DNA of 63,970 nt, the filler included, from Stramenopiles sp. TOSAG23-2 (taxonomy: Eukaryota), in NCBI GenBank assembly GCA_900128395.1. It is 4 parts of 4 records of this genome, joined end to end, with 100 filler letters (N's around TTAATTAATTAA, not from the genome) between each part and the next. Parts side by side here need not be neighbours in the genome. Positions count along the whole stretch, not along the records: positions 48,381 to 63,970 come from LT649702.1; 3 more parts are not named here. One strand, written 5' to 3'. The position numbers and the translations under genes were made by a program. The notes under the pieces were generated by a model. That model made no database searches and was not told the DNA's origin. It saw only the letters and a program-made list of their open reading frames with translations. Positions 39,340 through 61,589 of the stretch are shown here, one piece after another. How positions within the stretch are numbered: the stretch's first letter is position 1; every line of letters begins with the position of its first letter.

Positions 39340-42300
39340 TTAAAACCTCACACTCTTCAAAGTTGGACGTGCTTTTCCACAGACTTCACAATAAAATTTA
39401 TCATTAGAATTGTACTTTGTACATCCACCTTCCATTTGTGAACATTCCCATTGATCTCGAGGCACTTGTCTTCTACCATCCCATCCCAAATTGCACATCA
39501 CACACGTTTCATTTGCAATGGAATTGGCAAATGTACAACCGAGACATAACCAAACTTCATTTTTCTCAACAATTGCAGATCCAACGGCGCATTCTTTTGG
39601 TAAATGTGCATGTTTCAATGCTATAGGAAATGCTTTGGCAAATTCAGCTAAGTTTAATTTATCCGGGTTTTCACTTTCCAACATATGGAACATTTGTACT
39701 ACATCGACTAGTTTTACTTGAATTTTTAAATCTACGCATAATCTCATTAAACTTTCTGTATTTAAAAATCCACCAAGACCATATAATTTATAAATGCAAT
39801 CAACAAGTGTATCTTCCGATGGGGTCCAGGAATGCACACCACGTGATTCTTTTACCCCAACATTTGTTTTGACACTTAATGCAGCAGAACGTGCTTCTTT
39901 CTGCGCCACACTTGCAAATATATGCACAAGAGTATTAGTGGGCATATTTCCACCATCCAAATTTATGCCTGTTAGTGTACCACGTAAATTATCAGCAAGT
40001 GATCTTGCACCGAGTAAATGCCATTCCGATTCTGCTGTAAATAATTTAGCAACAGGTGTATCTGCCCATAAATTTCGTTCTCGAGATCGTAAACGTAATC
40101 CCTCCTCGAAAAATGTTAAACGATCATCTATTGGTGCTAACACTAATGCTTTGCTTAAACTTTTGATTTCTGTATCACTGTAATACATATCAGTGTTGAA
40201 AAAGCGGAAACAGCAAAAATTTAATTCGACATTGTTCCCTTCCTTACTTTCCTTAAAACCAGGAGATGCGTCTAATAGAAGACCACCGATTGTACGTATA
40301 GCAATATTTGCTTCTTTTAAAACAGGTTGTCTTGTATGATCATGTATCATACGTCTCAATGTTTCACCTTCTGCTAATGATAAAGCGACGAAATACCTCG
40401 AAGGATTTGATTGCGGTGCACGCGGTGGTAACTCACCTTTAGCAATCATCTGCAATGCCATTGCAGCTGCATCATTCGCTGCCATACCATTTTTTACTAA
40501 ATCTGAAAATATTTTTTTCATAAGTACTTTCGGATCGTTATCTACTGGTTCTAGTAATGGAACCCATTCTAATACCAATGCTATATTTTTTAATCTCCTA
40601 TCACCAATACCAATCCAAGACGGGCGGAAAAAATTGTCAGTAATCATCATGTCATTTGGAAATGGTAATTTTTTCAAATCTTTTCTTGTTTGAAAGTCTA
40701 ACGCTGGATAAAAAGGCGATGCACCAGGTAAATTAGCCATTTTCAAATCTGATGTTGGTGAATGGGATAATACTTCAACTTTCCATGGTTTTGGTTCTTC
40801 ATCGTCTCGTGAATACGCATTTTGCTTGATTTTTTCTTGTCGTACTTGTTTCTGAGCTTCTTCCTCTTGTTGCTTTTCATTTTCATGTACAACTTCAGAG
40901 TTCAAGGCGGCATTTCCATCGTCGCCTGACATAGTTACCCCTGTAGTAGCCTTTACCCGGGCTTTTACATTGTCAACACGTTTTGTTTCATGATCCTCCA
41001 TTAAAAATTCTTTATGCTCACCTACTAATTTATCAATACTTTCCACAAACGGTCTTGGGCGTGGTACTTTGTCTTCAACAGGGAATCCAATAGGTTCACG
41101 AAATACATTAATGCTTTTTTGCAACCAATCATTTCTATCAAATCGATGTAAACGTTTTAAACCATCATCCATACCTTTCGTAAATAAGCTAGATTTTACA
41201 TGAACTTCGTCGATTAATGTGCCAATCGCACGTTTTCGCCAAATATTATGTAATTCTTGTAAACTTAATTGAACAAATTGTAATCCTTCCATACGCATTG
41301 AGTTTAATAAAAGCCATGCTGGTACATCATATAAATAATCCCCAGTTGGACTTACAAGCTCTTCTTTAATACGATTGATCACTTCAGGTATTAGATAAAT
41401 CTCAATCGTTTGTCCAATGCCGATACCACGCATTCTATATGACCCTTGAGCATAATCACGGAACGTCATATCCTTCCCTACCGTGACAACAGCATGTGCG
41501 GTTGGCCCTTGTTTAATATCCATACCGGTAGTGTGTACTTGATCATAAAATGTAAATCGTTTTTCCGGGCGTATGCCACACTGTTCAATGCTAACCGCAC
41601 GTCCACTTTGTCGTACCAACACCATCTTACGATCTGAACGATCCAAGTATACAACACCTTCCATGTCTTCATGTAAATGTAACATCAAAAATTCTGCAAC
41701 TTCGCGATTATCCATACCTGTAATCAAAGCACCCGTGTCGATCAATGCGTGAACAGGTGGATCCGTTTGCTGTGCAATGTCTTTTAATAATGACTGAGCA
41801 GTCCAACTAGTTTTTGGACTCACTTTACATACTCGATGAGAAGACAATACGTGAACAATTCTTCCATCCGAACCTGGTTCGTATTGGCATTCCCCTAAAT
41901 CCATTGGCAATAAATTAGAAGGTGTACCACTGAACCCAACGCGCGATCCAAAAAGTAAAGAACTGCCAAGCTCATGCCCACATGCACTTACTTTCAACTT
42001 TTGGAAATTCATAGTTTTCGGGAAAATATGGTTTCGTAAAAAATAATGCAATAATTCTGGTAGTTTTCGTACCAATCCAAACAACCTGTTTAATTGTACT
42101 GGATCAGTTGGTTGAAATAATGGTAATGGCAAGACAGCAAGCGATCGGGACTTGCTTTTCCCTCGTTTTGGTGAATTTGTTGGACTTTGCTCAACTGCTA
42201 AATCCAACCAACGACGGAACAAAACGGCTGCAGGTCGGTCTATCCGTGGACCAATTTGCCGCGTATAATCTTGCTTTAATTGCATTACTATACGTTGTAA

Positions 42301-45300
42301 ATCTTTACGTCTTAAGCCGGAGTAACGATATGCAATTACAGTCAATCCAATCAATACATCAGGATGTGCAAATTCTGAGGAACGGCTCGGTACGTCTTTG
42401 CCAACAAATGGCACCGCCATAACACGACGACTGTATGGCATCCTTGGATCAGCAACGGCTAAGTCTGCTGGTGTTAATATACCAAATGAAACACGGTTAA
42501 TTTTGGACAAGACATGTGGTAGCAATGTTTGCACCCAATCGCACGCTAAATTTAGTAACTTCATCGTTTCACCGGTCATACCAGCCTCTAGAATGTTGGC
42601 ATATTTTTCACGCTCAACTTTTTGTATTCCCATCAAATATGCAGTCAATACTTCTGCTTTTACATTGCAACGACCAACGAAATGGTGTTGAAGCCATCCT
42701 AAAGCCCATTGAACGATCAATGGTTTCATTTTAGAATGATAAAATTTCAAATCCAATAGGACTAAATGCGGTGAACGTTGAATAGCATGGACTTGATATC
42801 CCTCTCGTATAATCGCACCAAGGCTTTCTAAAATTTCTTCATGATCAATATTTAGTGCTTCATATGCTTGAATATTTGGTTCATCTGATAATTTTCCAGT
42901 CTCTGCATAAAAAACAGCATCACATAAATGAATTGGTAAATTCCATCTATACCCTGATAAGTCAATAGGATATTTATGTCCAATCGGGAAGTTCAACTCC
43001 GACCTCAAAGGATGCAATAAAACATCTACTTCGTCCATAATTAAAACACCTTCCTTCCACATATCTAATATTTTGATCAATGAATCTGCCATTTCACTTT
43101 TTGCAATCATTTTATCTTTCATGTCCAGTGCAATTTCATTTTCACGAACGGAATTACCAGGAATTAATAATTTTGTATCAAATTCTTCAATGCTATGCAA
43201 ATGCTCCACAAATTTTAATGCTAATGATTTAATAGCCTCTGGTGCAGCACATACAACACAGCGTTCTTTCCTTGCGTCGTTTAATTTTGCATATAACTTT
43301 GAAACAAATTCTGCAGAATCTTCCACACTGCGCTCAAACTCCAAAGTGAACACTTTCTTCGGTAAAATTGCCGTTGAAAAGCATGATTTCATCACATCTT
43401 TCGTCTGCTGAAGCAACGCACTAGGCATGACTTGCATAATTAATTGGTTGCCATCTGCTAACATCAATGTTAATAATGGCCCAACAACGGTAGTCTTACC
43501 AGCACCCATGATCATTTGCTGTACACGTGAATCGCCATTCAAAATACTTTGATAAAAGGAAGTTACAATTTCAACTTGCCGTTTTCTTAAAATAATATCG
43601 AACACATATTCAAATACCAAAAATCGCGGATCATATTCCAATGAAATTTGATCAATAAAATATCGCTTTGTGCAAACTGTCTTACCCAACGATTGCGATT
43701 GTATCTTTATATACGTTGTTAACTCCTTTAAATCATTACCAGTTATATTGTTTTCGCGAAGAGATTTCATATTGCTTAAAAGTTTTTTCATTTTCTTTGC
43801 AGCATCAACAATTCTATTACCATGTCGTACACGTGATACTCGTAGTAAAATTTCCTCGATACTGTTTAAAATAGAATTTGTATCTTCGATAAACGGATTA
43901 ATTGCAGAGATATCATTATTTGATGTTGTAGACATAATCATACTTGTAACATGTGTAATATCTAAAACTGGTCTTTGCCTAGCTAGTCGAAGCAATCTAA
44001 AACGTGTCCTTTTTTCAAAATCGCTACCTGTTACGTTTGCATCTGGTATGACTGCAATATTTGATTCTACAGATTTAATTTTATTTGCAATAATTTCACG
44101 ATCATTGTCTCTCAATTTTACAACACGTTCTATTAAAGTGTTTAATGTCCCCGTAGCTTTTTTGATTGATGTACTCCATTCTTTCCCGTTTAACAAGTCA
44201 ATATCTTCAATTTTCAAACCAATTAATTTTGGATCTAACCGTCCTTCTTGACTCTTTGCAAACCCTTCTTTATCAGCTGCAAGACGTTTCATCATATCTG
44301 ATGCTATAGGCGTTTGAGATTCAGCATTTTTGCTAACATCAAAAGGGAGATCTGCTACAACTGTTTCTGCGGTAGAATCAAAAGTGATCAAATCATCTAA
44401 GTTTATAGCACCGATAGGTTGACTAGAGAAATATTTAGCATCTTCTTTTGAGACACCTCCAATATCATTAGTGGAATTATCATTATCTTTCTTTTCTTCA
44501 TCATCAACCTTAGATGCAATCACTAATTTACGAGCATGTAAAGAGAAATCGGATACTTTGATCGGCAATGCATTTGAATTGACAATTAACGATCTTACTT
44601 CAGGGTTACTTAAATTAAGTCTCTCTTCAAGCAAATTAACATTTAAAATGCTCTCAAGGCGCGAGGAGTTTCTCATTTCTATTTGCTTCGTATTGATCAT
44701 AGCACTATGCTCCTCGCACATAACAGTTTGCTTAAACTCTGCATCTAAAAACTGGAAGAAAAGCTTAACCATTTGAGCATCGTCTTGCTGCGGTTGTTGC
44801 CTAAACATCATTCCATTACCACCCAAAAACCTTCGACGCATCTGCCGTTGCCGGGAACTTCCATGTAGATCAATACCTTGTTTCAATAGTTCAAGACTTA
44901 CATTATCTTTAGGCACAGCCGGCCATTGCCTTTGGGCATTGTTTAATCTAGTTATTAATTGAATCATTTCCCTTGAAACTTCTGCATCTTGTTCCCCTTC
45001 ATTCACCGCTTCTCTACCCCATCTAGCGTGCTTTAAGTGGAAACTACGAGTCAAAATTTCTGCGAAGGAACGTGTACAATCATTTCCACCTAACACAAAT
45101 TTGAACTCATTCTGAATCATTTGATATAAAAATATTATTCCCAATTGTCGATTTGCACCACTTTCCTCATCTAACATCAATTCCTCGGTCCAAAGAAACT
45201 TAAATACTTCATCATCTTTCATTAAATTTGGATATTGCGTCTTCGGCATTTCATATTGTACGTAATGCATCTTCGATCGTAATCTTTCAGCGATATATGC

Positions 45301-48280
45301 CGGTTGCAATATAGCAAGCTTCCACCATGGTTGACCACCAATACGTGGTGATCTACCTTTCAGTTCAACTTTGTCCAATTTTTTCTCGTCAGCTAATAAC
45401 ACTGCTAAACGATTTTTCAACGATGCGTTTGCTACTTTACACAATATCAAAAGGTTTTTTTCTTCAACGTGCGACAAACGACATGCGGCAGAGACGTGTG
45501 CGACATTTTTTAAATATCGTTGAAATATAACATTTGTTTCCCACATCATTTCGTTGGAACTATACATAATTGCCAATATCAGCTTCAAGCGTACAGCTTC
45601 TGCATCTGGATGGGAATCAAATTGAGCTCTTTCTTGGATCAAATTAAAAACCCATTTTTCCTCTGGCGTGAACTTCACATCAATCGCACATACTTCAATC
45701 AATCGATAAGCTTCTTCATATTGCCTAGCTAATAATTTTAGTAAAATTAAATATAAGCGACAAGATAATGTCGTCGTTATCAAAAAAGATTTTGATGTAT
45801 GTATTGGTAACATGAAATACCGCCTTTCCATCACTTCTTGCCACGTAGCGGAGCTACGATCAAACACTAGATTAGTCGAGAATGGTATTCCGCGGACAAG
45901 TGGTCGATGCACATCGTGATTACATAATAGTATTTGAAATTCATCTGCTTGATTTTGAAGTAATAAACTATGAGGCAAACCAATTAGATGCTGCAAAATC
46001 GCCTTGCGTTCTAATGATACAGTTCCATCGCTCTCCTCTTCACCGTCAGTTATTGAGTAGTAATCTGTAAGAAACCATTCATCTGCATCTGCTATATGTA
46101 ACCGTATGGAACCGTCAGCATGAGTTTTTTGAGAAAATCTTAACTTTAAACGAGGTAGTTCAATCAATACTATTTTCATAGTATCATTATCACCTTCCTC
46201 GCCCCAGACTAAAATGTGAGAAATGTCTTCAATTCTAGTCAATGTATTTCTTAAATTAGTAAGAGTTTCATTTTTTGCATTTTTAGGGTCGAGCAAATCT
46301 ACTAAAACCATGACGTCTTTCTCTTTTTCATCCTCGTCCATTACAATATCCACATCTACATCATCAGTCTTGACTTCTGAGGAAGAATTATTGTTTGGAA
46401 GAAACGACTCTCTGTTTTCCTGTGAAAGCCATATACGCGATAATTCTAAGGCATTATCTTCTCCACGAAACATATTTAATGCATATTCTGCAAGTTTATC
46501 TTTATGTCCTTCGCTTACAAGGATATCGACTTTGTCCGTAAAAGAACTAGTACGTTTTAATGGAGGAGCACTAAGACTATTATTGTTATTATTATTATTT
46601 GCCTCCTCACTTATGTTGACAGCACTGATAATGCTTGCGTTGCCTTCGTCAAACAACCATGCGGCTGCACGTTCAGGATCTGATGCATTACGTTTCAATG
46701 CAAGCTTAGCAGATGCTGGTGTAAATCCCAAATTAATCAATTGTAAGAGCGAATTTTCGTTCTCATCGCTTGCTTCATCCGCATTGCGTCCAAGTGAACT
46801 TTGCCTTAACAATGACACAGCAGTCTTAGCTTTCTGTGACATGCCTGCACTTTCCTTGGCTGATTTTTGTGCAGACCGAGAAATCTTTGCATTCAATATT
46901 TGGCTTTTGTCATCATTTAATTCAACTTTTACGTCAAAATTAAACCACTGAGACACTTCATCAAGTGCTTCCCCACTTAAACAATTCTTTTCGTCTTGCC
47001 AAAACCTAAACGCTTCCAGAAGAACTGTTGGTACGACACCCTGAAGTAACCTTGCAGGAATGTACGTCTCGCGTCCTCCATGTTTCTCATTTTGTCGCAT
47101 AATTACTAGAGACCCAGATGGTTTTCTGTAGTCTTTTAAATCCCCTGCGCTATATTGTACCTCCTTTGGAACTGGTCCACTTTGTGCACCTACTTTGACT
47201 GGTAAAGAATGATAAGAAAATCTGGAGTCAGACGTATATATCAAACTTCTATATGCTCTTCTTCCATGTGGTATTAAATTGAATATATGAACCACCGGAG
47301 GTGATTTTATAACTTGAACTTCCTTCCAAGTCATATTACCTTTATCCGCATTTGCACACCCTACCAATCGTACCATATCGCAGGCTTCATCGTACGGATC
47401 ATTTGGTAACATCAACTTGTATTTCATAGGTTTTTGAGGTGGAAATTCTACTAAAATAGCAGATTTCAATAGATCAACGAACCATTTCTCACTTTCATGT
47501 TCGTGGGGCTTTTCTGAATATGGATCAAATTCACGAGTATAATCAGTCTCCATATATTTTGCCGGCAATGGTTCAGGAGGACCTTCTTGTCCCCCACCTT
47601 GCTTTTGCCCTCCCCCTCCGCCACCACCATTACCTCCATTATTTACTATTGCATTATTTATTATTGCACCAGGTCTCGGCGTACCACAAACATTACAAGT
47701 TGCTCCACCCTCATTGAGCATTGTACATGCGGGACATGACCAAAATAAAGGTTGATGTACTTCTGCTACAATTTTCGTCGGCATTCCAATCCCTTGATCA
47801 TCCTTGTCTGGTTCATCCCATTCAGCAAGATCGCAATTTTTTCCAACTATATGTACCCATAAGCGATGTTCTTCTCTACGCACAATACCACAATGCAAGG
47901 GCTCTCTTCCAAATAAGGAATCGTAATCATTGTACTGTACCATGCTGTCTGGTACTGGCCTTAACTCATCATTACGCCAAAGTACTTCAGCTGATTGAAT
48001 ATCAAATTTCAATTCAATGCTATCTGCAACATAATTACCAACACCTTGACCTTTCCAGCCATCAAATTCGAAAGTCTTATTTTTAAGCGCTATTGCCATG
48101 ATCCTATTCAATGCGCGATCTAACTTGCCTGCATCACAGCTTGTAAACCATTGAACAACAGAGCGACGTTTATGTTGCAACATTAATAACAACGCTGCTT
48201 CTGGTAGCTCAGCTGGTGGTAATTTATTTTTATCAAGTTGTCTCTTAAGCAGATAGGGGTGTGGATCGGAGGTAGGGTTC
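39340..48280 (-). CDS. Giant DUF3638/DUF3645 P-loop protein with RanBP2-type Zn fingers and UBA domains; 5'-partial (>2970 aa)
   Basis: QMIMGAGKTTVVGPLL, LIMDEVD and MAVPFVGKDVPSRSSEFAHPDV; WxCxxCTxxN fingers; UBA-like LLQLINLGFTPASAKLAL; frame stays open to the contig edge. Confidence 0.85.
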
Positions 48281-48380: not shown

Positions 48381-48516
48381 TATCATGTGATCGATTAAAT
48401 GGCGTGACGCAAAAATTTCATTTGTAGAGAGAGAGAGAGAGAGAGGAGTGTGTGTGGTGGTGGTGGTAGTAGTAGTAGTAAATCTTCAAATATATATATA
48501 CGTAATATAAATGATG

Positions 48517-48717
48517 TGGTTAAAAAATCTAAGTTATAATTAATTTTACACTTCTTGTGTTAAGTAATATGCTCAATACTCAATCGCAAGAATAATATGC
48601 TATCCTACTACGTATATGAGTAAGAGCTCTAATGCACCCTCTGCAAACTAATACGATCGTACTCTACAAGCACAAGTAGGTTTCTATCCTTCCGTGCGCA
48701 CTCGTTGAACGCGCTGG
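48517..48717 (+). repeat. Dispersed repeat family B, copy 2
   Basis: Aligns with 23757-23943 with small indels. Confidence 0.9.
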
Positions 48718-49110
48718 TATAATATATATACGAATATACCGTATTATAATATAATTAAAATTATTAAATGCACGCGTATTTTAATTTTTTATTCCTATCT
48801 ATACTTAAGTAAATCTTCATATATATATATATATAAAATGTTCTCTTACTCATATATATTATATACTCTTCGTATAAATTTCTTTTACTCCCGTTCATTA
48901 ACATCTCAAATCAAAAATGATTTATAAAGTTTAGTAAAAATTATTTAGTATTCAAAAGATTGTTCCTCTGTCTGTGATTCAGAGTTAGACGAAAGAGCTA
49001 CTCCTTCATAAAGTTGTAAATCACATTGTTTAAATCTTCATATATATATATATATAAAATATTAAAAATATTAACTATTAAATGCATGCGTAAATTAATT
49101 TTTTATTTCC

Positions 49111-49635
49111 CTAACCAATTGGAATACTGTCATCTGCCTCACACGAACCATCATACAAGCACTCAGGTACACAGTTATCATACAAGACACATTTTTTGCA
49201 GTCTTTGACTGTCATGCTATATGCAATCGTACGAGCTGATGGATCTGCTTTCACATCTGGTATAGGTATATTTCTCTCGTAATCCCATCTTTGGCTGGTT
49301 CTTTCCCAGATATTTCCATTCTCTCCCCCAGGACGAGATGCTTCATCATATAAACCGGACAATGATAGACATTGGGGCATGCAACCAGACGTTAAGCCTA
49401 AAAATATTGTACAATCATCGATAAATTGTGCAGCCGGCTCCTTGGCATCACAATCATCTTCTTCATCCCCCGCAACTTCCTCCTTCACAACAATATCATT
49501 CCTCCCACCACTACCTCCTTCTGGTTTTACCAAGTTAGAATCAATAAGAATACATTCTAACACCCATGTTTCCATATCAATAGTATTATGTTCATCCTCT
49601 TCATCTAATAAACTTATTGTTTCAACTATTTCCAT
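49111..49635 (-). CDS. Hypothetical acidic, Cys-containing protein (exon boundaries uncertain)
   Basis: 174-aa ORF with coding-like composition; no recognised domain. Confidence 0.45.
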   Translation of the reverse strand: MEIVETISLLDEEDEHNTIDMETWVLECILIDSNLVKPEGGSGGRNDIVVKEEVAGDEEDDCDAKEPAAQFIDDCTIFLGLTSGCMPQCLSLSGLYDEASRPGGENGNIWERTSQRWDYERNIPIPDVKADPSARTIAYSMTVKDCKKCVLYDNCVPECLYDGSCEADDSIPIG

Positions 49636-50229
49636 TTCATCGCCAAAATCAATATCATCATTATCATCTTCAGCTAGGTGTGAGATGATATGTGCATGTA
49701 CATCGATGATGGAAAAGTGGAAATTTGATAGTATTAAATATTAATAAATACCATGTATTACTATGTAATACCATATACATTCCGAATTTCTTTTCAACAA
49801 GTACAAACATTTTGTATTCATAGATGTTGCAAGTTTACCTAGTTCAATCAATCATTGATCATTGATGACATTTTTTAACATTTGAATATACGAGTGCAGT
49901 AGTATACTAATACTGTAAGCTATTATAGCTTATCTACAATAGTGCTGGAGTGTGGTGATAATACCACACTGGTAAACTGGTAATTTTTAATTTGCAGCAG
50001 AGAGGAAAAAAAGAGCACTTCTTCTTTAATAGCACTTCGTATTTTCCCCGACTTCTTATTATATATTTACTGGTGATGTGATGGTATGCAACGTAGTCGT
50101 TCATGTGCTCGTCGTCTTTTGATTGAATAAATATACAATATAATGTACAAACAATTGTGATACTCAATACATAAGCTACAATCTATTGTATATATGACAA
50201 ATAAATCATAATAATCATCGTATTATATC

Positions 50230-53200
50230 ATGGAGGAACCACCTGATGAATATGTCCGTTTACATGATTTTCATACTGGTAATTTCATTATATGTACAAA
50301 TGGTAAAAATTTAAAAGATTTCCAATGGTTACAACAGTTTCAAAACGTAAATGTAGAAAAGACTCGTAATGGTTTAAAATATGCGATCAACGTTGCTGAC
50401 GATTGCGTCCCATATCTAGACGATACAAAAACATTTTCCCATGACGATATGGTTGGAGCGGAAGAGCTAAAATCGCAGAAAAGACTCGTAATGGTTTAAA
50501 ATATGCGATCAACGTTGCTGACGATTGCGTCCCATATCTAGACGATACAAAAACATTTTCCCATGACGATATGGTTGGAGCGGAAGAGCTAAAATCGCGT
50601 TGCAAAACAATTGTTCAATATAGTACATATATGCATATTTTTTTAGGGTCAAACGCTGGAAATTTTATTATATCATGTTTAAGAGGAAGGTCACGTTCAC
50701 CTTGTGTTATTTTATGTTTTTTGATTCTCTTTCGAGGTTTTAATACAGAAAGAGGTATAGAATACTTGACAAAAGCATTTCGCGACCAACGACCAACTAT
50801 GGCACGATCTAGTAGCAACGATTCGAAAAATTTTCCAAATTTAAGACGATATTTAAATATATTTTCATATTTAGAAAATTTAAAACATAATGTATTATTA
50901 TCATTGAATAGTCGTAGTAGTAGTAGTAATAATAATAATGATCAACAAAATAATGATAATAATAATAATAATGGTGTTGAAGATTATAATAATAATAATA
51001 ATAATAATTGGTTATTAAATACCATTACAACGGTTTGGGATAAAATATGCATAGCAATGCCCCATATGAAAAATAATAAAAATTATATACCACCAATGGT
51101 ATGTTTGCAACAAAAATTTGAAGAATTATGGAATGTATCGAAAAAAATCAAATTGCTTGAAGATTTGAGGAAAGACCATCCACATTTACCAGAAACAAGT
51201 GTATTTACAATTCCAGAAAATCTGATTGGATCATCTTATAATAATAATATATTTAATACCTTTCATGAATCAGGAATATCATTTATGCGTTTAGGCAATG
51301 ATATTAAAAGAAGAAGAGTTGCACCACAAGTATATACAATAACCGATATTGGGGAAAATAATAATGAAAATACATCAATATCCAAAGTAAAAGTAAAAGC
51401 AAAACCTCAAATTCGTACAGCATTGACCCCATTGTTGCGTAATAAAATTATAAAACCTGGAAAGGAAAAGTTATATTTTCAAGTGGAAGGCAATATTTAT
51501 AAAGCAGATATTATGAAAGATGGTCGAATTGTATATAATAGACCGTCAAAGAAAAGAAAACGTTTCAAAGGCCCAAGGGGTTTGATAACATATATATACG
51601 GAAAGTTTCATCAATCAAAAAAAACAGATGTTGGTAGCATGGACCCTTGGGCAGTAATAAAATACATTGACAAGGATATTATTACGAATAATGATGATAC
51701 TATTACTACTACTACTGCTAGTAATAATAATAATAATAATAATAATAATAGCAACATTATGAACGACAAGGATATTATTATGAATAATGATGATACTATT
51801 ACTACTACTACTGCTAGTAATAATAATAATAATAATAATAATAATAGCAACATTATGAACGACAAGGATATTATTATGAATAATGATGATACTATTACTA
51901 CTACTACTGCTAGTAATAATAATAATAATAATAATAATAGCAACATTATGAACAATAATAATAGCAACATTATGAACAATAATAATAGCAACATTATGAA
52001 CAATAATAATAGCAACATTATGAACAATAATAATAATAATATAAAAGATGGAGCAAGAATAATGATGAATATGTCCCCGCAAAGCAGCCAAACGAACGAA
52101 GAAATAATGGCAACAACAACTACTAGTAATATTGCTGTTGCTGTTGCTAATACTACTACTGCTAATACTACTACTACTACCACCACCACCCCCACCACAA
52201 CGACGATGACGACATCACAATCACTACCAACAACAACAAATAAAGATATACACACACAAGCATTGTATTATTCTTTACGTGAATTAAAATTTGAAAGTCA
52301 AAATGTAGAAAATCAAATGAAGAGAAAGGCACAAAAACAACAACGTACAAAAAAAAGGAAACTTGGTGTCGTTAGTAGAACTGCTATTACTACTTCTAAC
52401 AATAATAACAAGAAGATTCATCGGAGAAAGGGTAAAAAATTGAAAGTAATACGTCCTAAAGTAGGTGGTAGAAGACGAAAAAGTCGGTATAGTTTAGCTA
52501 AAGTAATACGTCCTAAAGTAGGTGGTAGAAGACGAAAAAGTCGGTATAGTTTAGCTGTCAAAGAGGAAACTATAAAACGTTTTAGAGAATTTTACGCAGA
52601 CAATGATTTTCAAACGCACGATACTTTTCCAAACAGCAAACTACCGCTTCCTGGGATGTATATGTATTTAACGCTTCGAGGATCATTTGTGGAGTCAAAA
52701 ATCAAAACGAAACATACAGCATCAAAGTTTTCAGATGTCTATTGGTTTTTCCACAATAAAAAAACTGGCATGACAACACGATGTAGATCAACCGTTGAAG
52801 TAAAGAAATATTTTGCTTCAAAACATCGTGATTTGTTGAAAGATGATGCAGGAATTAAAACCATGTTTAATGCAGTTGCCTGTATGAAATTGAAATGTTG
52901 TCTAGTACATGTAAATGGATCACCTCGACCACCGCATCCATATGATGTCAATTATGAAATTGAACTAGAAAAATATAAGAAATTACAAAGTGAAAGATTG
53001 AAAAAAGACCTCGACCACCGCATCCATATGATGTCAATTATGAAATTGAACTAGAAAAATATAAGAAATTACAAAGTGAAAGATTGAAAAAAGAGGAAAA
53101 TATGACTAGTACTAATAATGCAACTGCTGCTGTTGCTGCTGCTATTATTACTGCTACTACTACTGGTGGTACTACTACTACTACTACTGGTGGTGGTACT

Positions 53201-54724
53201 TCTACTACTGGTGGTGGTACTACTACTACTGGTGGTACTACTACTACTATTGCCACCTCTACAACAACAACAACGTCTTCTAATACCAATACTAATGTAG
53301 ATCAGAAAATGTTAAAAATGGAAAAAGAAGAGGAATTACAAATGGAAGAAAGAAGTAATTTGGATGATACTACTACTAGTGGTGATAACAAAATGTCAAC
53401 AACAAAAGCTTCAAGAAAAACCTTAGAAAAACTTAGAAAGCAACATGATAAAGAATATCATTCTGCCGTATCGAAATATCTTGTAGAATTAAATACAAAC
53501 GAATTGAGGAGTTTAAAAGTGAACGATTTTGTATATGCATTTTATCCTGGATCAGAATTATCTGATAGAAAATATAGCCGATTTAAAATCTTGGCAGATT
53601 TGACAAATTGCAACAAGAAAAAACAATTAAAAAGTTCGCATAAACGAAATTGGGGATTGAAACTTTTATGGGAACCAGACTTCCCACACTCACAAACAAA
53701 TAAAACTCCATTTAAAATTAGTATGATAAGGCCTGCAAAATTAAGACCAGGATATAACCACTTGCCATCATTAAAAGAGTTAATGCATCATCACGATAAA
53801 GATATATTAGTTCATGATGATTTGAATGGTGGGACATCCATTGCATCGGTAAATAATATTCGACAAGCTTTGTTGCCAAAATACATTGAACAACAACAAA
53901 AACAAGATGTTTCTGCTAAGATTACGCAAGAATTGCAAGTCTCACTATCAAAAAAAAGAAATGGTTCCTATATTGATAATAATAATAATAAGAATGATTA
54001 TAATAATGATAATAATAAAAATGATTACAATAATATAAAATCAAATAATCATAATAATAATTTGAGTGATAAAAACAATACCAATAACGAAAAACAATAC
54101 GACAGCGGGGGATCATCTTCAGCTGAAATTGATGCTATTTTATCAAGAACGGATAGTTTATTTGAGAGCATACCAAATTTAAATAAGTTGGACAAAATTG
54201 AGAAAGAAAAAATGTCTGGATCGGATACAACTACACATACTCCTATTGGAGATATAAATGACAGTGAAGGGGATGATGATGAAGACAACTTGATAAAAGA
54301 TATTGATACTAATGCAGGTTCATTATTACGATCAAAGAAAAACGATGCTAATGATGATAAAATAACGGCAACTGATGTTTTGCAAAATAGCCGTGAATTA
54401 AAAGCTAATGAAGAAGTTCCAAACGATTCATATGTTTATATTATCCAAAATCAAGCAATTGGATGGGAATACGTACAAGTGATTGAATCCAGGGCAAGTA
54501 ATTCTGGTAAACTGTATTTAAAATTGAACTTTAATCGAGAAAATGATGATGGGGAGGAGTCGTTATTAAATGGATATTGGTTTGGTAAAGAGGAACTTTC
54601 ATTACGCGTCCCTTTAATTACAATTACAGATCCAGATGGTCCTGCGTTAGGTTCAATTTTTCCATCAATCGTCGGGATTGTACCAGAAGATTTTATAGCT
54701 AGGAAAGGTCGATGTAGTCAATAG
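50230..54724 (+). CDS. Single multidomain gene of about 1430 aa once duplications are collapsed: dual-specificity phosphatase + RAMA-like + MBD-like + Tudor-like domains
   Basis: ORFs 50230-50499, 50571-53054 and 53084-54724 join in frame when the exact 122-nt and 86-nt duplications are removed; CX5R motif SCLRGRSRS; domain motifs are given in the findings. Confidence 0.7.
50355..50598 (+). repeat. Exact 122-nt tandem duplication (frameshifting)
   Basis: 50355-50476 = 50477-50598. Confidence 0.93.
51669..52025 (+). repeat. In-frame coding tandem repeats (three ~96-nt units, then 24-nt units)
   Basis: DKDIIMNNDDTITTTTASN...SNIMN three times, then NNNSNIMN units. Confidence 0.85.
52443..52556 (+). 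repeat. Exact 57-nt tandem duplication (in frame)
   Basis: KVIRPKVGGRRRKSRYSLA twice. Confidence 0.9.
52922..53093 (+). repeat. Exact 86-nt tandem duplication (frameshifting)
   Basis: 52922-53007 = 53008-53093. Confidence 0.93.
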
Positions 54725-55117
54725 TGTTTTTCTAGAATATTTTGGAACATGAACTCTTTTTAAGTTGTTGTTTGCTTCATGAAAATTTTTAAATAATTTT
54801 TTTTCTCCTGTATTTTATTTCAATTTTTTTTACTATTTCTTATTCGTATTATTATTTTTCGATATCTGATATAGAGAGTGATGACTTGTTAGACTAAGAC
54901 TGCACCTGCACAACCAAAAGCCAGAAGGGAGAAAAAAGTAAGCTGGTAAGCTACCAGGTAAAAGGTGGTGCTATAAAGAAGAAATCTTCTGCACTTCTCC
55001 CTGAAGAAATCAAACCACCTGGCAAATCAAAAAGTATATTTAATAGAACTAAATTAATCATAGTAGTGTGAAAAAGATGTTGTATAGTTAGTTCATTTTT
55101 TTGTTTTCTTACAGAAA

Positions 55118-55349
55118 ACAAGAATTTACAACAATGACGTCTATGACAACACCACCTCGTACACGAAAACAACCGTTGCGGCTGGCATTGCGGACGGATA
55201 TATTGACACCGAAAGCAATATTAATGAAACATCACAAGAATTTACAACAATGACGTCTATGACAACACCACCTCGTACACGAAAACAACCGTTGCGGCTG
55301 GCATTGCGGACGGATATATTGACACCGAAAGCAATATTAATGAAACATC
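55118..55349 (+). repeat. Exact 116-nt tandem duplication spanning the NMNAT-like start
   Basis: 55118-55233 = 55234-55349; ATG at 55134 and 55250. Confidence 0.92.
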
Positions 55350-56086
55350 TTGATGAACAATTTAAGAAAAATGAAAATAATAATAATAATAATAAGAATT
55401 CAATAACACCAATTGTATTGTATACTTGTGGTTCCCTGTGTCCAGTTCATTTGCAACATGTTGCTTTGCAAGAAATGGCAAAAGAATATTTGGAAAAACA
55501 TTATAATTTAAAAGTTGTCGGTGGTTTCTTAGCTACTTCAAATGATCTTTATGTTGGACAAAAATATAAAATGTCTGGTCGTCTTGAGTCATATTTAAAT
55601 TGGAGTCAACGTTCTGAGTTAATTGATTTAGCACTTGAAAACCATCCCTTTCTTTGTCAAGATAAATGGGACGGAGAAGAGCAACCTCGTTTTCAAGAAT
55701 ATTTCATGGCACAAAAGCATCTTCAAGACCATCTTAATACTTGGTGCAAAGAGCAAAATTACCCGAAAATCCGCGTATTAGCTGTTCATGGAGCAGATCT
55801 TGTAAACAAATGTAATATAAATGAATGGTTTCCAACAGAAGGATTAGGCTGTGTTTGCATCGAAAGACCTCCAAATAAATTGCCTTCTGCTAATCCAGAT
55901 AAATATTTCTTTTCCATGCCATTACCTACTGAATATAAAAATCGACAAGGGGATAATATGAGTATATCATCAACACGAGTACAAGAACTTTTAAGAGGTG
56001 ATGTGAGAAAAGAAGGCGAAGTATCTGTACAGGAAATGTTGCATCCAAAAGTATTAGAGAAATTATGTCAATTGTGGAATTTGTGA
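55250..56086 (+). CDS. Nicotinamide/nicotinate mononucleotide adenylyltransferase-like (HxGH-type nucleotidyltransferase)
   Basis: GSLCPVHLQH (GSFxPxHxxH), VVGGFL, GADL and ISSTRV. Confidence 0.8.
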   Translation: MTSMTTPPRTRKQPLRLALRTDILTPKAILMKHLDEQFKKNENNNNNNKNSITPIVLYTCGSLCPVHLQHVALQEMAKEYLEKHYNLKVVGGFLATSNDLYVGQKYKMSGRLESYLNWSQRSELIDLALENHPFLCQDKWDGEEQPRFQEYFMAQKHLQDHLNTWCKEQNYPKIRVLAVHGADLVNKCNINEWFPTEGLGCVCIERPPNKLPSANPDKYFFSMPLPTEYKNRQGDNMSISSTRVQELLRGDVRKEGEVSVQEMLHPKVLEKLCQLWNL

Positions 56087-56161
56087 AGTGAAGTATCTGT
56101 ACAGGAAATGTTGCATCCAAAAGTATTAGAGAAATTATGTCAATTGTGGAATTTGTGAAGT
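56018..56161 (+). repeat. Exact 72-nt tandem duplication spanning the NMNAT-like stop
   Basis: 56018-56089 = 56090-56161. Confidence 0.92.
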
Positions 56162-56350
56162 GTGTATGATATACATATGATATAATATATATATATGTAA
56201 AAAGGGAGTGTTGGCCACACAGCTGCTGGCCTTATCTAGATTTAGATTATCGCTGCTATCTACGTATATTAGTTGCTAAATAACACATGCCAGTTTTAAT
56301 ATTTTAATATTTTTTGGTTACGAATATCACAAAACCTTCCACCCACTCCC

Positions 56351-59300
56351 TTACCGATCACTCGAAATGTAATTTTGAAAACTATGTCTAGATGAAGGTC
56401 GTTGCTGTTCTTCCATTTCTTGTATTTGCACATGACGGTTACCATTATTACGTCTTCCTTCTTTGCTGCTTTTTCTATCACGACGGTCATTGTTATCATC
56501 GTCATCTGAATCAATCATTTTTGATGATGATGTTCTTGATTGTTGCTTCAAGTCTTCCAATTGATCCATTTCTTGTATTTGCACATGACGGTTACCATTA
56601 TTACGTCTTCCTTCTTTGCTGCTTTTTCTATCACGACGGTCATTGTTATCATCGTCATCTGAATCAATCATTTTTGATGATGATGTTCTTGATTGTTGCT
56701 TCAAGTCTTCCAATTGATCTTCTAAATCTTCAATATAATATTCTACATCATTAATTTGTGCTTCAATTTCAGTTCTTTCTACACTATTAGCAGACGTTGT
56801 GATCCATTCTGCTGCTGCATATAAACGTCGTAAATGTGTTTGCTGTCTGCGTATCTCATTTTCAAAATATCGTGCTTGACGTTGTGGTGTACCAGATACG
56901 GTACTTAATCTTGAGCTAGCACGACTACCGATGGATGAACGCGAAGATGGACGCCGTTGCGGATTTTCTGGAAAGTCCTTACGACTTCTTGGTTTTCTTC
57001 TATAATTATCATCATCATGATCATTATCATTTCGCCTACGACGTTCATATGATTGTTCTCGAGCTCGACGTTTTTCATCATAATCTCCATTGTTATTAGC
57101 TTTCTTACGCCTTCGATGTTCCATAACTGCTTTGTCTATGCTATTATTATCTTTCTTATTATTAGTATGATTGTTATTGCGATAATCATCTCCACTGCCT
57201 TTCTCTCGTGATCTTCTCTTTTCCAATCTTTGCTCAGTGCTATCGCGTTGTTTCCTTGGAGGTTTTCGTTTGCTATTATTGTTGTCATAATTATTAATAT
57301 CCACATCTTGCTCGTTATCATTATCATCATTTTTATCTCGTCGATTTCTTCTCCTATTGGCGCTTCTATTTTGTCGTTTATCTCGATTTTTTCTATCATA
57401 ATCCTCTTCTTCTTCCTCCTCCTCCTCCTCCTCCTCATATCGTTGTCTTTTATTTTCATCACTTACACGATCTTGTTCACGTTGTTTTTGTAAATGTTGT
57501 TGTATCTGACTACGTCGATTATTTTTATATCCACGTTGAGTATGAGGAACTGGCTCACCTAAATCAAATCTATTTAAACGATTTGGTTCTATTTTATTAT
57601 GCCTTTCCCTTGGTATTAAATTTGAATCCAACGATCCACGACTTGAGCCTCTACTATTTCTGCTATTGCTTCTCCTATTATTATTATTATTATTATTATT
57701 ATTACTCATATTTGTATCACGACTATTTAATGAAGATCGTATTGAAGCATTTGATCCTCTTTCTGCTTCTTCGCGTCGCCTTTCCCAATCGCGTATACGT
57801 GCACGATAACTTGGAGTACTTGATACAATACTTTGCCTTTCATCATCATCTTCACTGTAATATTCTTCCTCCTCTTCATCATTATAAGTGTCTTGTGCAT
57901 ATTTACGATCACGTCTATTTTGATTTTGCCTTTGTTTTTGTTGTTCACGTTCCATTTCCTCCGCCTTTTCACGCTCACGTCGCTTTTCTTGTTGTCTTGC
58001 AACATGTTTTTCATATTTATTATATTGCCTTTTATCATTACTTTTTTCTCTGTACACAACATTATCATCGTCGTTCTCCCCTTCTTGCATTTTCGATGAT
58101 CCTAATAACGAAGCTCTATCAGAAGCATTGCTTCGCATGGATGAACGATCATCTCTTCTTATTTTATTCTTCCGTCTTGCCTCGTCTAATTTTCTATGAT
58201 GTCTTGCAATCCAATCTTCTTCATCTTTTTTCACAGCAGCTAGTTTTTGCTTCTCCTTCTTACGTTCTTTAGCATATTGATCATCACGTTCGTCATAGTT
58301 ATTGGAAGCTCGATCTTCCTCACGATATTCGTTTCGGCTTCTTCTACGATTGTTGTTGCGATCATCATCATCATCATTTTGATTTCTTTGTCTTCTCCTT
58401 TCTTTCACATCATTATAATCCCTTCTTTCAGCTTTTCCATTATTATTCTTATCTGCGTGCCTTTTATTGCCAGATGGTGGACGATCACTTTTAACAGAAC
58501 CAGCTCTAGAGTTTTTGTATTTACGACGTGAACTAGTTGATTGAGGACGATGTTGATCTTGAGAAGATCGAGGTGGTTTATCACCCATCGTTGATCCAGC
58601 TCTTGAATTATTACTTGCGCTTTTTCGACTATGTGCAGTTTTTGGCCGATCATTGTATTTACTTTTACTTTTATTACTATGTTTATTATTATGAAAATTT
58701 GTCATTGGTGGCCTATCACCCATCGTCGAACCAGCTCTTGAGTTACTTTTTCTACTTCTACCCCCTTCACTTCCATTTCTTTTATGACGACGACGATTTC
58801 TATTCCAATTATCTTCTGATAATTTTTCATTAATTGGATTTTTCTTATTATTATTCCCATTTCGATTTGATTTTTTCGTCATATCTCTTGTATTTCCATG
58901 TTCATCTTCTGTATCCCCACTTTCATCACCGCTTTCATCATGGTGATTTCGAGAACGATCACGACGATTGTTAGTATTTTCAATATTTTTACGTTGTACT
59001 TTATTATCATTAGTATCTTGTTTTTGCTTTGTTTTTACAAGATTATTATTATCACCATTATCATTACCATCATTCATATCCTCTTCATCCAATACATTGT
59101 CCAACCATCCAAGTATCTCACGTATACGTGGCCGTTTAGATTGATCTTTATTTAACATAGCAGCAATTAAATCTACTAAAAATGTAGAATAATGTTCTGG
59201 TATTGGATCGTATTTTCCTTTACTAATAGCATTTGCTAATGCCATTAAATTTTTACCAGAAAATGGATGTTCCAAAGCAGCTAATTCATATAAAACAACA

Positions 59301-60019
59301 CCTAATGACCAAATATCAGTCAATTCATTATATGGTTTATTTTCACATAATTCAGGACTTGCATATAATGGTGTACCATAAAATGTATTTACCATGACAG
59401 TTTCTATTGATAATTCACGCCCTACTCCTAAATCTCCAATTTTAACAATTGGGACAGCATCATCGTCGTCATCACTATCATCATCATTTACATTGCCACC
59501 AATAATAAGACTACTTGTTTTTTCCCTCCTATTATTATTATTTCTAGTAACATTTTTTGGTTTATCTAATAAAATATTTAATGTTTTGATATCACGATGA
59601 ATAATACCCATTTCATGCAAAGCACATACACCTTTGCATATTTGTTGAAAAATTCGAAGCACAACCTTTTCTGGGTAATATTTCTGCTTCGACCGTCGTT
59701 TTAATATTTGTTTATATAAATCACCACCAGTTGCATATTCTAATACCATGAAAAACGATCCTGATCTAGAAGTTGCACTATTTGCTCTAAAATGTCCATA
59801 ACATCGTATAACGTTTGGATCTTGAACTTTTTCCAATAATTCCACTTCATGCTCCATCACTCCACGTCCACGTCCTAGTTCTGGTGCACGCCTTTCCTTC
59901 AATACAACCATTTCACCACTCCTACGAACACGTGCTTTGTATACTGCACCAGTATTGGATCGAAAAATTTCTTCTATAATATGAAAATCACTTTTACTGA
60001 ATGATTCAAGATTAATCAT
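56351..60019 (-). CDS. NIMA-related kinase (NEK) with a long charged, low-complexity C-terminus
   Basis: VVLKE, VLEYATGGDL, HRDIKTLNILL, KIGDLG, GTPLYASPELCENKPYN and DIWSLG. Confidence 0.92.
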   Translation of the reverse strand: MINLESFSKSDFHIIEEIFRSNTGAVYKARVRRSGEMVVLKERRAPELGRGRGVMEHEVELLEKVQDPNVIRCYGHFRANSATSRSGSFFMVLEYATGGDLYKQILKRRSKQKYYPEKVVLRIFQQICKGVCALHEMGIIHRDIKTLNILLDKPKNVTRNNNNRREKTSSLIIGGNVNDDDSDDDDDAVPIVKIGDLGVGRELSIETVMVNTFYGTPLYASPELCENKPYNELTDIWSLGVVLYELAALEHPFSGKNLMALANAISKGKYDPIPEHYSTFLVDLIAAMLNKDQSKRPRIREILGWLDNVLDEEDMNDGNDNGDNNNLVKTKQKQDTNDNKVQRKNIENTNNRRDRSRNHHDESGDESGDTEDEHGNTRDMTKKSNRNGNNNKKNPINEKLSEDNWNRNRRRHKRNGSEGGRSRKSNSRAGSTMGDRPPMTNFHNNKHSNKSKSKYNDRPKTAHSRKSASNNSRAGSTMGDKPPRSSQDQHRPQSTSSRRKYKNSRAGSVKSDRPPSGNKRHADKNNNGKAERRDYNDVKERRRQRNQNDDDDDRNNNRRRSRNEYREEDRASNNYDERDDQYAKERKKEKQKLAAVKKDEEDWIARHHRKLDEARRKNKIRRDDRSSMRSNASDRASLLGSSKMQEGENDDDNVVYREKSNDKRQYNKYEKHVARQQEKRREREKAEEMEREQQKQRQNQNRRDRKYAQDTYNDEEEEEYYSEDDDERQSIVSSTPSYRARIRDWERRREEAERGSNASIRSSLNSRDTNMSNNNNNNNNNRRSNSRNSRGSSRGSLDSNLIPRERHNKIEPNRLNRFDLGEPVPHTQRGYKNNRRSQIQQHLQKQREQDRVSDENKRQRYEEEEEEEEEEEDYDRKNRDKRQNRSANRRRNRRDKNDDNDNEQDVDINNYDNNNSKRKPPRKQRDSTEQRLEKRRSREKGSGDDYRNNNHTNNKKDNNSIDKAVMEHRRRKKANNNGDYDEKRRAREQSYERRRRNDNDHDDDNYRRKPRSRKDFPENPQRRPSSRSSIGSRASSRLSTVSGTPQRQARYFENEIRRQQTHLRRLYAAAEWITTSANSVERTEIEAQINDVEYYIEDLEDQLEDLKQQSRTSSSKMIDSDDDDNNDRRDRKSSKEGRRNNGNRHVQIQEMDQLEDLKQQSRTSSSKMIDSDDDDNNDRRDRKSSKEGRRNNGNRHVQIQEMEEQQRPSSRHSFQNYISSDR
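56412..56717. repeat. Exact 153-nt tandem duplication (in frame, NEK C-terminus)
   Basis: 56412-56564 = 56565-56717. Confidence 0.92.
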
Positions 60020-60584
60020 TTTTTTTAGACTATTATTATTTAAAATAAAAAAATAAATGTGGTCTTTCTTCTTTTACATAAATGTCTATATATATATATG
60101 ATGCACAATAAAGGAAATAAAAACAAACTTTTTGTAGTTTGATTTAATGCTCTATATATCAATACTATTTCCAGATAATATATTGGAATGAATAAATGAA
60201 ATGGAAGAAAGGAGCAATTTGTCTATGAATCAGTTTAATATATATAATTTATTAAGTTTTGAAAAAAAAAATATAACTGTTTTTGGTGCTTTGTTTGTTG
60301 AGATGATTGATAAGATTTTAGACAAGTATTATAGTTATTACACTATCAGATTACATAGGAGAAAAGTAAATCTTCATTCTAGTTTCTTTTCTATAGTTAA
60401 TATAATTTCATCCCAACACATGAAGAAGAAATGAGTGTAATTACAATATTATATACAGTATATATATTGCAGTATTCTTATTATTAAAAAGTACACAAAC
60501 GCACACACACACAAACGCACACACATCCCCAGGTTCACATTATTCCTACTTTCCAGCATCTATAGTTTTACAATTTCCCAAAAT

Positions 60585-60816
60585 TTATTTTTTTTTATGA
60601 AGATTTGAACTATAAATACCTTTCTTTACAACACTATGAACGGCATATGTTTTTGGTGTGGAGGACGGTTTCAATGGTGGTCGTTCACGTAATTTTTCTG
60701 GAATTGCTTCAAATCTTTCTTTTGCTCGACCAATACGTACATCATCCATATCTTCTGGCATATGAGGCGGGAAATTTGTATGTGAACCATCGGTATTATG
60801 ATGTCCAAAATAACCT
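60585..60816 (-). CDS. 3' end of a gene that runs into the N gap
   Basis: Open frame GYFGHHNTDG...RERPPLKPSSTPKTYAVHSVVKKG...KKK* with the stop at 60585-60587. Confidence 0.6.
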
Positions 60817-61417
60817 NNNNNNNNNNNNNNNNNNNNNNNNNNNNNNNNNNNNNNNNNNNNNNNNNNNNNNNNNNNNNNNNNNNNNNNNNNNNNNNNNNNN
60901 NNNNNNNNNNNNNNNNNNNNNNNNNNNNNNNNNNNNNNNNNNNNNNNNNNNNNNNNNNNNNNNNNNNNNNNNNNNNNNNNNNNNNNNNNNNNNNNNNNNN
61001 NNNNNNNNNNNNNNNNNNNNNNNNNNNNNNNNNNNNNNNNNNNNNNNNNNNNNNNNNNNNNNNNNNNNNNNNNNNNNNNNNNNNNNNNNNNNNNNNNNNN
61101 NNNNNNNNNNNNNNNNNNNNNNNNNNNNNNNNNNNNNNNNNNNNNNNNNNNNNNNNNNNNNNNNNNNNNNNNNNNNNNNNNNNNNNNNNNNNNNNNNNNN
61201 NNNNNNNNNNNNNNNNNNNNNNNNNNNNNNNNNNNNNNNNNNNNNNNNNNNNNNNNNNNNNNNNNNNNNNNNNNNNNNNNNNNNNNNNNNNNNNNNNNNN
61301 NNNNNNNNNNNNNNNNNNNNNNNNNNNNNNNNNNNNNNNNNNNNNNNNNNNNNNNNNNNNNNNNNNNNNNNNNNNNNNNNNNNNNNNNNNNNNNNNNNNN
61401 NNNNNNNNNNNNNNNNN
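60817..61417. other. Scaffold gap (601 N)
   Basis: Run of N without the linker. Confidence 0.98.
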
Positions 61418-61589
61418 TACCGTAAAAAAAGATATGTTGTTGTTGTCCTCCTGTTGTTGTCGTCTGTTGTTGTTTGTTATTTCAGAAACATTGATGAAAG
61501 TATTAAAAGTATATAATTAAACTGTATAAATGAAAGACCTCTATAATTAAGATATTTTTGTAGCGTGAATGTATATGTAATAATACAAC

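Follow-up and report, generated by a model that had tools for sequence, protein, structure and literature searches.

Three neighbouring open reading frames (ORFs) in the genome of Stramenopiles sp. TOSAG23-2 (GenBank assembly GCA_900128395.1), an uncultured AT-rich marine protist, are a single hidden gene that has no introns and is broken in the deposited record by short exact duplications. The gene lies on the + strand at 50230-54724 of the window, meaning the whole stretch of DNA analysed here: 63,970 nucleotides (nt) composed of four parts of four records, joined end to end with 100 filler letters between each part and the next, with positions 48,381 to 63,970 coming from LT649702.1. Once three artefactual second copies are taken out, it encodes a protein of 1409 amino acids (aa), a result that rests on the ORFs themselves, on metagenome contigs and on homologues. 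The protein starts with an atypical dual-specificity phosphatase domain, which is followed by a probable RAMA-like domain and by conserved basic modules of less certain kinship. Its most likely function, with a probability somewhat above even, is that of an atypical phosphatase tethered to DNA or chromatin.

The ORFs run from 50230 to 50499 (89 aa), from 50571 to 53054 (827 aa) and from 53084 to 54724 (546 aa). A preliminary description of this DNA had proposed that they fuse into one frame of about 1430 aa after duplications of 122 nt and 86 nt are collapsed, and this was borne out: deleting the second copies of the two exact tandem duplications (50355-50476/50477-50598 and 52922-53007/53008-53093) gives one stop-free frame of 1428 aa, from an ATG at 50230 to a stop codon at 54722-54724, and contigs and homologues agree with it. 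A third exact duplication of 57 nt (52443-52499/52500-52556), which is in frame, repeats KVIRPKVGGRRRKSRYSLA and was not used in the preliminary description; collapsing it as well gives the 1409-aa protein, which has an isoelectric point (pI) of 9.24 and consists of 13% Asn and 10% Thr. The coordinates and peptides on which the proposal had been based were all found in place: IISCLRG at 50667, LRNKIIKPG at 51435, DPWAVIKY at 51642, YYSLRELK at 52266, LPLPGMYMY at 52641, VEVKKYF at 52794, LKVNDFVYAFYPG at 53513 and NDSYVYIIQ at 54422.

The case that the breaks come from the assembly depends on independent sequence. The stretch is present in many marine or seawater metagenomes from 13 studies, and contigs of two DNA runs (X4 and X6, from two independent metagenome studies) and of two RNA runs (X15 and X16) were compared with positions 49000-57000. 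A 762-nt contig (X6 record 23) that differs from the window at no position joins 50354 directly to 50477 and so skips one 122-nt unit; in two further contigs (X4 record 20 of 829 nt and X6 record 25 of 640 nt), 52442 is followed directly by 52500 and 52921 by 53008, so that one 57-nt and one 86-nt unit are skipped. When a contig built by a de Bruijn method passes through the unit with unique sequence on either side, we infer that the words spanning the duplicated junction were absent from the reads. The predicted proteins tell the same story: P0003, a fragment from another assembly, has a single copy of the 19-aa unit encoded by the 57-nt repeat and is continuous across the 86-nt junction; P0006 and P0008 also have that unit in single copy; and neither homologue, P0001 or P0002, is interrupted at the two frame-shifting junctions. 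Because the duplications are missing from independent contigs and the homologues read straight through, the second copies at 50477-50598 and 53008-53093 are best regarded as frame-shifting assembly artefacts rather than genuine frameshifts, and the one at 52500-52556 as an artefact that keeps the frame. Genuine frameshifts had been named as a possible refutation of the single gene, and at these places the metagenome DNA contigs carry the single-copy junctions.

These are not isolated cases. In the 64-kb window, tandem duplications that are exact, non-periodic and two-copy number at least seven and measure 57-173 nt; six fall between 50.3 and 56.7 kb, where three genes or more are affected. Besides the three in the gene itself, they comprise one of 173 nt (32499-32844) that touches or shortly precedes the beginning of an MFS transporter ORF; one of 116 nt (55118-55349) within which the next gene begins (ORF 55250-56086, with a weak cytidylyltransferase-like match); and two of 72 nt (56018-56161) and 153 nt (56412-56717) that metagenome contigs skip. 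Five of the six duplications in 49000-57000 are absent from the metagenome DNA contigs, the 116-nt unit at 55118 having no informative contig, and the duplicated form occurs in none of the listed metagenome pieces over this interval. It could still be argued that the sequenced cell truly carries the duplications and that the locus is a pseudogene in three ORFs, since they are exact and stand in the deposited record, and since the runs most like the record (X1-X3, with a share of 0.87-0.95) lie outside the contig comparison. That reading is highly improbable: contigs from two independent studies skip five of six duplications, fragments predicted from other assemblies carry the single-copy form, and so many exact duplications clustered in 6.4 kb across several genes look like a local assembly fault. 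As the duplications break genes, the gene calls of this record need correction.

Support for one continuous and expressed gene is uneven along its length. The RAMA segment is linked to the region upstream of it in an independent protein fragment (P0014) and in two contigs (X4 record 19 and X6 record 24). Three stretches are of low complexity: an Asn-rich insert at 50904-51018, without counterpart in the homologues and treated as a repeat in the reads; an Asn/Thr-rich stretch at 51669-52250, open in frame and built of repeats of 96 nt (three copies) and 24 nt (4.4 copies); and a Thr/Gly/Ala-rich stretch at 53094-53300 with very high foreign depth in metagenomes. Over the ACT/GGT repeat at 53005-53271, which codes for Thr and Gly, the summed contig depth was very high in metagenomes (19,173 in X4); this depth evidently comes from many unrelated organisms and is uninformative about the gene. 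RNA contigs from complementary DNA (cDNA) and poly(A) metatranscriptomes cover eight parts of the gene, which hints at expression. None of them has a splice joint, none from X15 or X16 spans a duplication junction, and the bins over the RAMA part (51136-51936) have no RNA cover in either run. These RNA contigs therefore do not establish a single mRNA: they lie on parts of the gene, but do not reach across a junction or over the RAMA part.

A search with the first 400 residues brought up two homologues, P0001 with 952 aa and P0002 with 954 aa (37-39% identity, E 6e-49 and 8e-46). They have in common with the window protein the phosphatase, the middle region, a module likened to the methyl-CpG-binding domain (MBD) together with the Cys/His cluster behind it, and the first of two segments that had been likened to Tudor domains; they have no Asn/Thr runs, no RAMA-like domain and no C-terminal domain. 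Residues 1-165 of both form a conserved N-terminal extension that belongs to no Pfam family. When P0001 and P0002 were searched against the window by tblastn, no exon for this extension of about 165 aa came up, and either the window protein begins at the phosphatase domain or an upstream exon has gone unseen.

Wider searches returned little else. A profile of the two C-terminal modules (alignment A2) gave 11 matches, all short fragments, among 1.84 billion representative proteins; on our reading of their sequences these are probably fragments of the window's species or of the species of P0002. The RAMA segment had 99 candidates among longer proteins, none at E<=0.01, and the middle region plus RAMA retrieved two same-species fragments and nothing else among shorter proteins. 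Metagenome contigs at JGI searched with A1 (174 pattern matches) and viral contigs searched with the RAMA segment (nine pattern matches) contained no relatives. From these searches, the family appears to be known from three lineages only, with a RAMA domain in the window's lineage alone.

The phosphatase assignment is supported. The domain occupies 50230-50810 (a range that includes the artefactual copy at 50477-50598) and was matched by Pfam DSPc (PF00782) on 50478-51200 with 32.4 bits and E 9e-8 over profile positions 16-119 of 133, the first 42 aa lying outside the query. P0001 scores 34.3 bits, above the gathering score of 33.5, and P0002 scores 32.4. The active-site P-loop C-L-R-G-R-S-R (50676-50696) is a complete CX5R loop with a Ser before the Cys; CLRGRSRS at 50676-50699 has the CxxGxxRS pattern of a C-x5-R P-loop, and the loop IISCLRGRSRSPC is invariant in all three homologues. 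An FSHDD motif 36-37 residues upstream of the Cys is likewise invariant in the three, and its Asp pair could serve as general acid, a residue expected about 30 positions before the Cys in this family. Sequence matches in the PDB are weak and point to dual-specificity phosphatases (DUSPs; small, atypical ones), CDC14 and PTPMT1 (3rgo_A, E 0.35). The claim of an N-terminal phosphatase with an intact CX5R loop thus held up, and profile and motif together support an atypical dual-specificity phosphatase domain with a complete P-loop. Compared with atypical DUSPs (2hcm, DUSP26, DUSP13, VHR/DUSP3, PTPMT1), the domain has in common with them the catalytic family by profile and the CxxGxxRS pattern, and with 2hcm_A, the best PDB match, also the GRSRS string. 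The known ones consist of one small domain (chains of 151-219 aa), whereas the window protein has Ser in place of the usual His and more than 1200 aa of basic modules of a DNA-binding type.

This Ser raises the question of activity. One reading holds that the phosphatase is dead or nearly so and that the protein is a DNA-bound scaffold or a trap for phosphorylated substrates, like pseudophosphatases of the STYX type. The replacement of the conserved His in all three homologues is in its favour, as are a DSPc score that sits at the Pfam cut-off and the absence of that His from 2hcm_A too (YCKNGRSRS in the alignment). Classic pseudophosphatases, however, typically lose the Cys or the Arg, and here the nucleophile Cys, the P-loop Arg and the Gly are all invariant, as are the Ser next to the loop and the two Asp upstream of it, which makes a dead enzyme unlikely.

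A second question is the substrate. The two extra Arg of the loop would recall phosphatases that act on anionic non-protein substrates, and the doubly basic P-loop (CLRGRSR) favours a substrate of that kind. A rival reading has the enzyme working on RNA or some different polyanion (an inositol phosphate or a lipid phosphate, for example) and not on chromatin proteins, with the basic modules binding RNA instead of DNA. The doubly basic CLRGRSRS speaks for it, together with PTPMT1 among the weak PDB matches, a lipid phosphatase for which a CX5R loop with basic residues has been noted as a feature (PMC3576122), and so does the fact that the modules downstream of the RAMA segment are without an assigned fold. 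Against this stand the RAMA domains studied so far, which in the structural account of PMC9963953 bind double-stranded and not single-stranded DNA, as well as Pfam scans in which no RNA-binding family appeared and the absence of any detected transmembrane or lipid-binding domain. This rival reading is unlikely.

The domain that would tie the phosphatase to DNA is the RAMA-like one at 51393-51665, matched by PF18755, by the PDB chain 7ydt_A, by a hidden Markov model (HMM) of bacterial RAMA segments and by hhalign. On the segment taken by itself, PF18755 reaches 29.7 bits (E 6.4e-7) over profile positions 11-88 of 107; within the 827-aa ORF it reaches 25.1 bits. The top PDB sequence match is 7ydt_A, the RAMA domain of MPND (E 0.012, 18.8 bits, query 26-108 against chain 67-142), all others having E>=0.88. 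Three MPND residues touch the DNA backbone, S113, S115 and W135 (PMC9963953, as far as its contacts are described), and in the 7ydt_A alignment W135 falls on a Trp of the window domain. The E-value is significant but the score lies below the curated cut-off, and the segment is therefore called RAMA-like; with that qualification the resemblance to the MPND domain that had been pointed out survives, and the segment is probably, by its sequence matches, a RAMA-like domain.

Bacterial RAMA domains offered a second comparison. A survey of Pseudomonadota found the domain in 112 of 401 genomes (one of those surveyed, G388, is unpublished and enters this count only). The bacterial domain is mostly C-terminal in frames of about 380 aa that resemble CcrM-type methyltransferases. 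An HMM of 28 bacterial segments gave 12.4 bits on the window core, and hhalign gave E 0.003 over 47 columns. The N-terminal half is alike (G-l-kpG ... A-v-DG), whereas the bacterial GSIH and CNGWTFW, invariant or nearly so in the 28 segments, are replaced in the window, where only the Trp of DPW is kept, and the window protein has no methyltransferase domain. Profile positions 89-107 of PF18755 are unmatched, and the last part of the domain may lie beyond the low-complexity insert of about 190 aa, where YYSLRELK (52266-52289) is a candidate for the displaced last element, as to the eye it looks like the PID-LR with which bacterial RAMA segments end. Removing the insert left the bacterial HMM score unchanged (11.9 versus 11.9 bits, with 105 of 200 controls as high), the HMM aligning with the N-terminal half only. 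Set beside RAMA proteins of the MPND/MYSM1 type, the window protein has in common with them a RAMA-like domain on what would be a chromatin-directed enzyme, MPND as its closest solved relative and the DNA-contacting Trp. The partner in MPND and MYSM1 is a JAB/MPN deubiquitinase, according to the main accounts in PMC4738411 and PMC9963953, and the window protein has a Cys phosphatase in that place.

Further downstream, at 52641-52814, lies the module that had been likened to an MBD, LPLPGMYMYLTLRGSF...SKFSDVYWFF...RCRSTVEVKKYF, which is conserved in all three homologues. Its motifs are LP-x-W/M, R-G-S, DVYW and R-S-x-V-E-x-K-K-Y-F/L. The R of LRGSF, the D and Y of DVY, the R of RCRS and the E of VEV are invariant in the three and, aligned by us rather than by a tool to the MeCP2 motif, would stand at the positions of MeCP2 R111, D121, Y123, R133 and E137. 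In MeCP2 these residues supply the two Arg fingers, the Asp, the Tyr and the Glu of a salt bridge (PMC8811898, in its description of the MeCP2 domain).

Database searches did not return an MBD. Up to E 10, Pfam listed none for the window segment or any of the four members of alignment A2, and PDB sequences gave none to the A2 profile, to the core of the window module or to the corresponding stretch of P0001. The 11 A2-profile matches mentioned above include none either; in the Protein Atlas the best score for the segment was 0.79, which is uninformative. An AlphaFold2 (AF2) model of the P0001 counterpart has a mean predicted local distance difference test (pLDDT) of 40, with elements in the order strand, strand, strand, helix. 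In a Foldseek search with this model over 350,542 chains, the first of 33 rows was 3c2i_A, the MBD of MeCP2 (E 2.2, probability 0.08), with a template modelling (TM) score of 0.36 on the target, a root-mean-square deviation of 5.1 over 60 columns, 30% identity and no query range given; 6ogk_A, also a MeCP2 MBD, ranked tenth. The match is not significant, and it seems to lean on the same likeness of sequence that had been noticed beforehand. What the module has in common with MBD/TAM domains (MeCP2, MBD1-4) is the set LP-x-W, R-G-S, DVY-aromatic and R-S-x-V-E-x-x-x-Y-F/L and the predicted strand-strand-strand-helix order; it differs in that no test gave a significant score and in that both hairpin loops are longer in the window. 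The identification as an MBD is thus not sustained beyond a conserved motif, and the chances of a true but divergent MBD/TAM relationship are about evenly balanced.

Directly after this module comes an invariant Cys/His cluster, ACMKLKCC..H..GS.P.HPY (52878-52943; C802, C807, C808, H811 and H820). The C-x4-CC-x2-H-x8-H pattern, present in all three homologues, is one that may bind a metal, possibly zinc. A following cluster of this kind is not known from MBDs.

The two segments described as Tudor-like fared less well. The first is a conserved basic module at 53441-53767 that tblastn aligns with P0001 and P0002 at 48% and 45% identity (alignment A2). It has no match in Pfam, the PDB or the Atlas (best Atlas score 0.78, uninformative), and AF2 gave no usable model of it (pLDDT <50). 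The second, absent from P0001 and P0002 and present in the window's lineage only, is a C-terminal acidic domain at 54428-54685; one of five single-sequence AF2 models reaches a pLDDT of 67 and is all-beta, and Foldseek on the C-terminal model returned nothing at E<=0.001, the best match being a lipocalin at E 0.17. No family of the Tudor clan appeared in Pfam at E<=10 for 53405-53812 or 54374-54721, PDB sequence matches of both segments are at chance level, and the two are unrelated to each other. This leaves the first as conserved without support for its fold and the second as a generic beta-barrel in a weak model, possibly a small SH3-like one, and neither is established as a Tudor domain.

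From these parts a picture of the function can be proposed. The protein is basic along much of its length: the pI is 10.3 in the RAMA part, 10.9 in the linker, 9.6 in the MBD-like module and 10.1 in module 2, and at four places 4-5 Lys/Arg residues follow one another without a break. Double-stranded DNA or nucleosomes would be bound by the RAMA-like domain, by the linkers rich in Lys/Arg and by the MBD-like module with its basic character, these parts would hold the phosphatase on chromatin, and the tethered enzyme would dephosphorylate chromatin proteins or a strongly anionic non-protein substrate. The comparison with MPND is in keeping with the first step, the RAMA domain of MPND being described as binding the backbone of double-stranded DNA and histones (PMC9963953), and eukaryotic RAMA proteins are presented as chromatin proteins in the survey of PMC4738411.

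The preliminary description had gone further and proposed that DNA-methylation reading is coupled to dephosphorylation. In the full model that follows from it, RAMA would read N6-methyladenine (6mA), a true MBD 5-methylcytosine (5mC) in CpG, and the Tudor segments methylated lysine or arginine. Part of this has backing. The RAMA-like domain has both Pfam and PDB sequence matches, the RAMA domain of MPND selectively bound a 6mA oligonucleotide in the pull-down experiments of one study (PMC6591016), and combinations of RAMA with TAM/MBD and with Tudor are on record in eukaryotes (PMC4738411, in its listed architectures). The MBD-like motif, in our own alignment to that of MeCP2, keeps residues at the five places named above, and a MeCP2 MBD heads the Foldseek result. 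On the other side, that Foldseek match is not significant and comes from a model of low pLDDT, MBD and Tudor are both missing from Pfam and from PDB sequences, the two MBD loops would be 3-14 residues longer than those of MeCP2, and the two Tudor-like segments are mutually unrelated. The reading of methyl marks in particular exceeds the evidence: the structure study of RAMA with DNA describes contacts with the backbone only and binding by MPND that 6mA leaves unchanged (PMC9963953, for the complexes it covers), and the RAMA domain of MYSM1 did not select 6mA in the assays of PMC6591016. No DNA methyltransferase appeared among the 24 ORF translations of the window that were scanned in Pfam. The full model is distinctly improbable. 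A narrower version, in which RAMA, together with a strongly diverged MBD relative associated with zinc, would bring the Cys phosphatase to DNA marked with 6mA and/or 5mC, is very doubtful as well.

Even for the plain chromatin-tethered phosphatase, several points weigh against the proposal. First, both enzymatic and tethering domains score under their curated thresholds in the window protein (32.4 bits against a Pfam cut-off of 33.5 for DSPc, and 29.7 against a gathering score of 35.2 for RAMA), and the change of the usual His before the catalytic Cys to Ser, seen in all three homologues, may mean that phosphatase activity is low. Second, two of the three DNA contacts of MPND are not kept, S113 aligning with Gly and S115 with Arg, and the bacterial RAMA profile matches the N-terminal half only, by HMM and by hhalign. 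Third, RAMA is missing from both P0001 and P0002 and so is dispensable for the core function of the family. Fourth, no independent contig or protein spans the low-complexity repeat at 51685-52252 between RAMA and the downstream part; continuity over this stretch rests on the present assembly and the open frame, and it is the sole unbridged joint of the gene. The MBD and Tudor identities are unproven, a nuclear location appears to be without support in the sequence, and the 23 single-base variants in the compared contigs, 10 synonymous and 13 non-synonymous, indicate only moderate constraint.

The surroundings of the gene are unremarkable. It stands among genes of kinds usual in eukaryotes (kinases, RecQ, BMS1, MFS transporters, a pyrophosphatase, CIA30 and Band 7), and on the - strand at 39340-48192 there is an ORF of 2950 aa for a giant protein with DUF3638, DUF3645 and a weak UBA-like match. 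GC content falls to 0.20 at 60001-62000, compared with about 0.30-0.39 in the rest of the window. Rfam and tRNA scans of the window returned no matches.

How unusual the arrangement is can be judged from the catalogue of eukaryotic RAMA proteins. The partners listed there are mostly deubiquitinases, and more rarely SET, PHD, Chromo, Tudor, Bromo, BRCT, TAM/MBD and RING domains (Iyer et al., PMC4738411). Combinations of RAMA with Tudor or TAM/MBD are catalogued in eukaryotes, stramenopiles included, so that the claim of an architecture without precedent has to be narrowed to the phosphatase, which is not among the partners in that list (its supplements may hold further architectures); a full-text literature search likewise showed no fusion of RAMA with a phosphatase in the titles and abstract openings of the papers listed. 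If the phosphatase is tethered as proposed, dephosphorylation would join the eukaryotic activities that are tethered to DNA by a domain from bacterial restriction-modification systems, and the protein would provide a compact test case for 6mA sensing by RAMA. Should the doubtful coupling to methylated DNA also prove true, this would be the first single polypeptide to wire the reading of a DNA mark to the erasure of a phosphate mark on chromatin.

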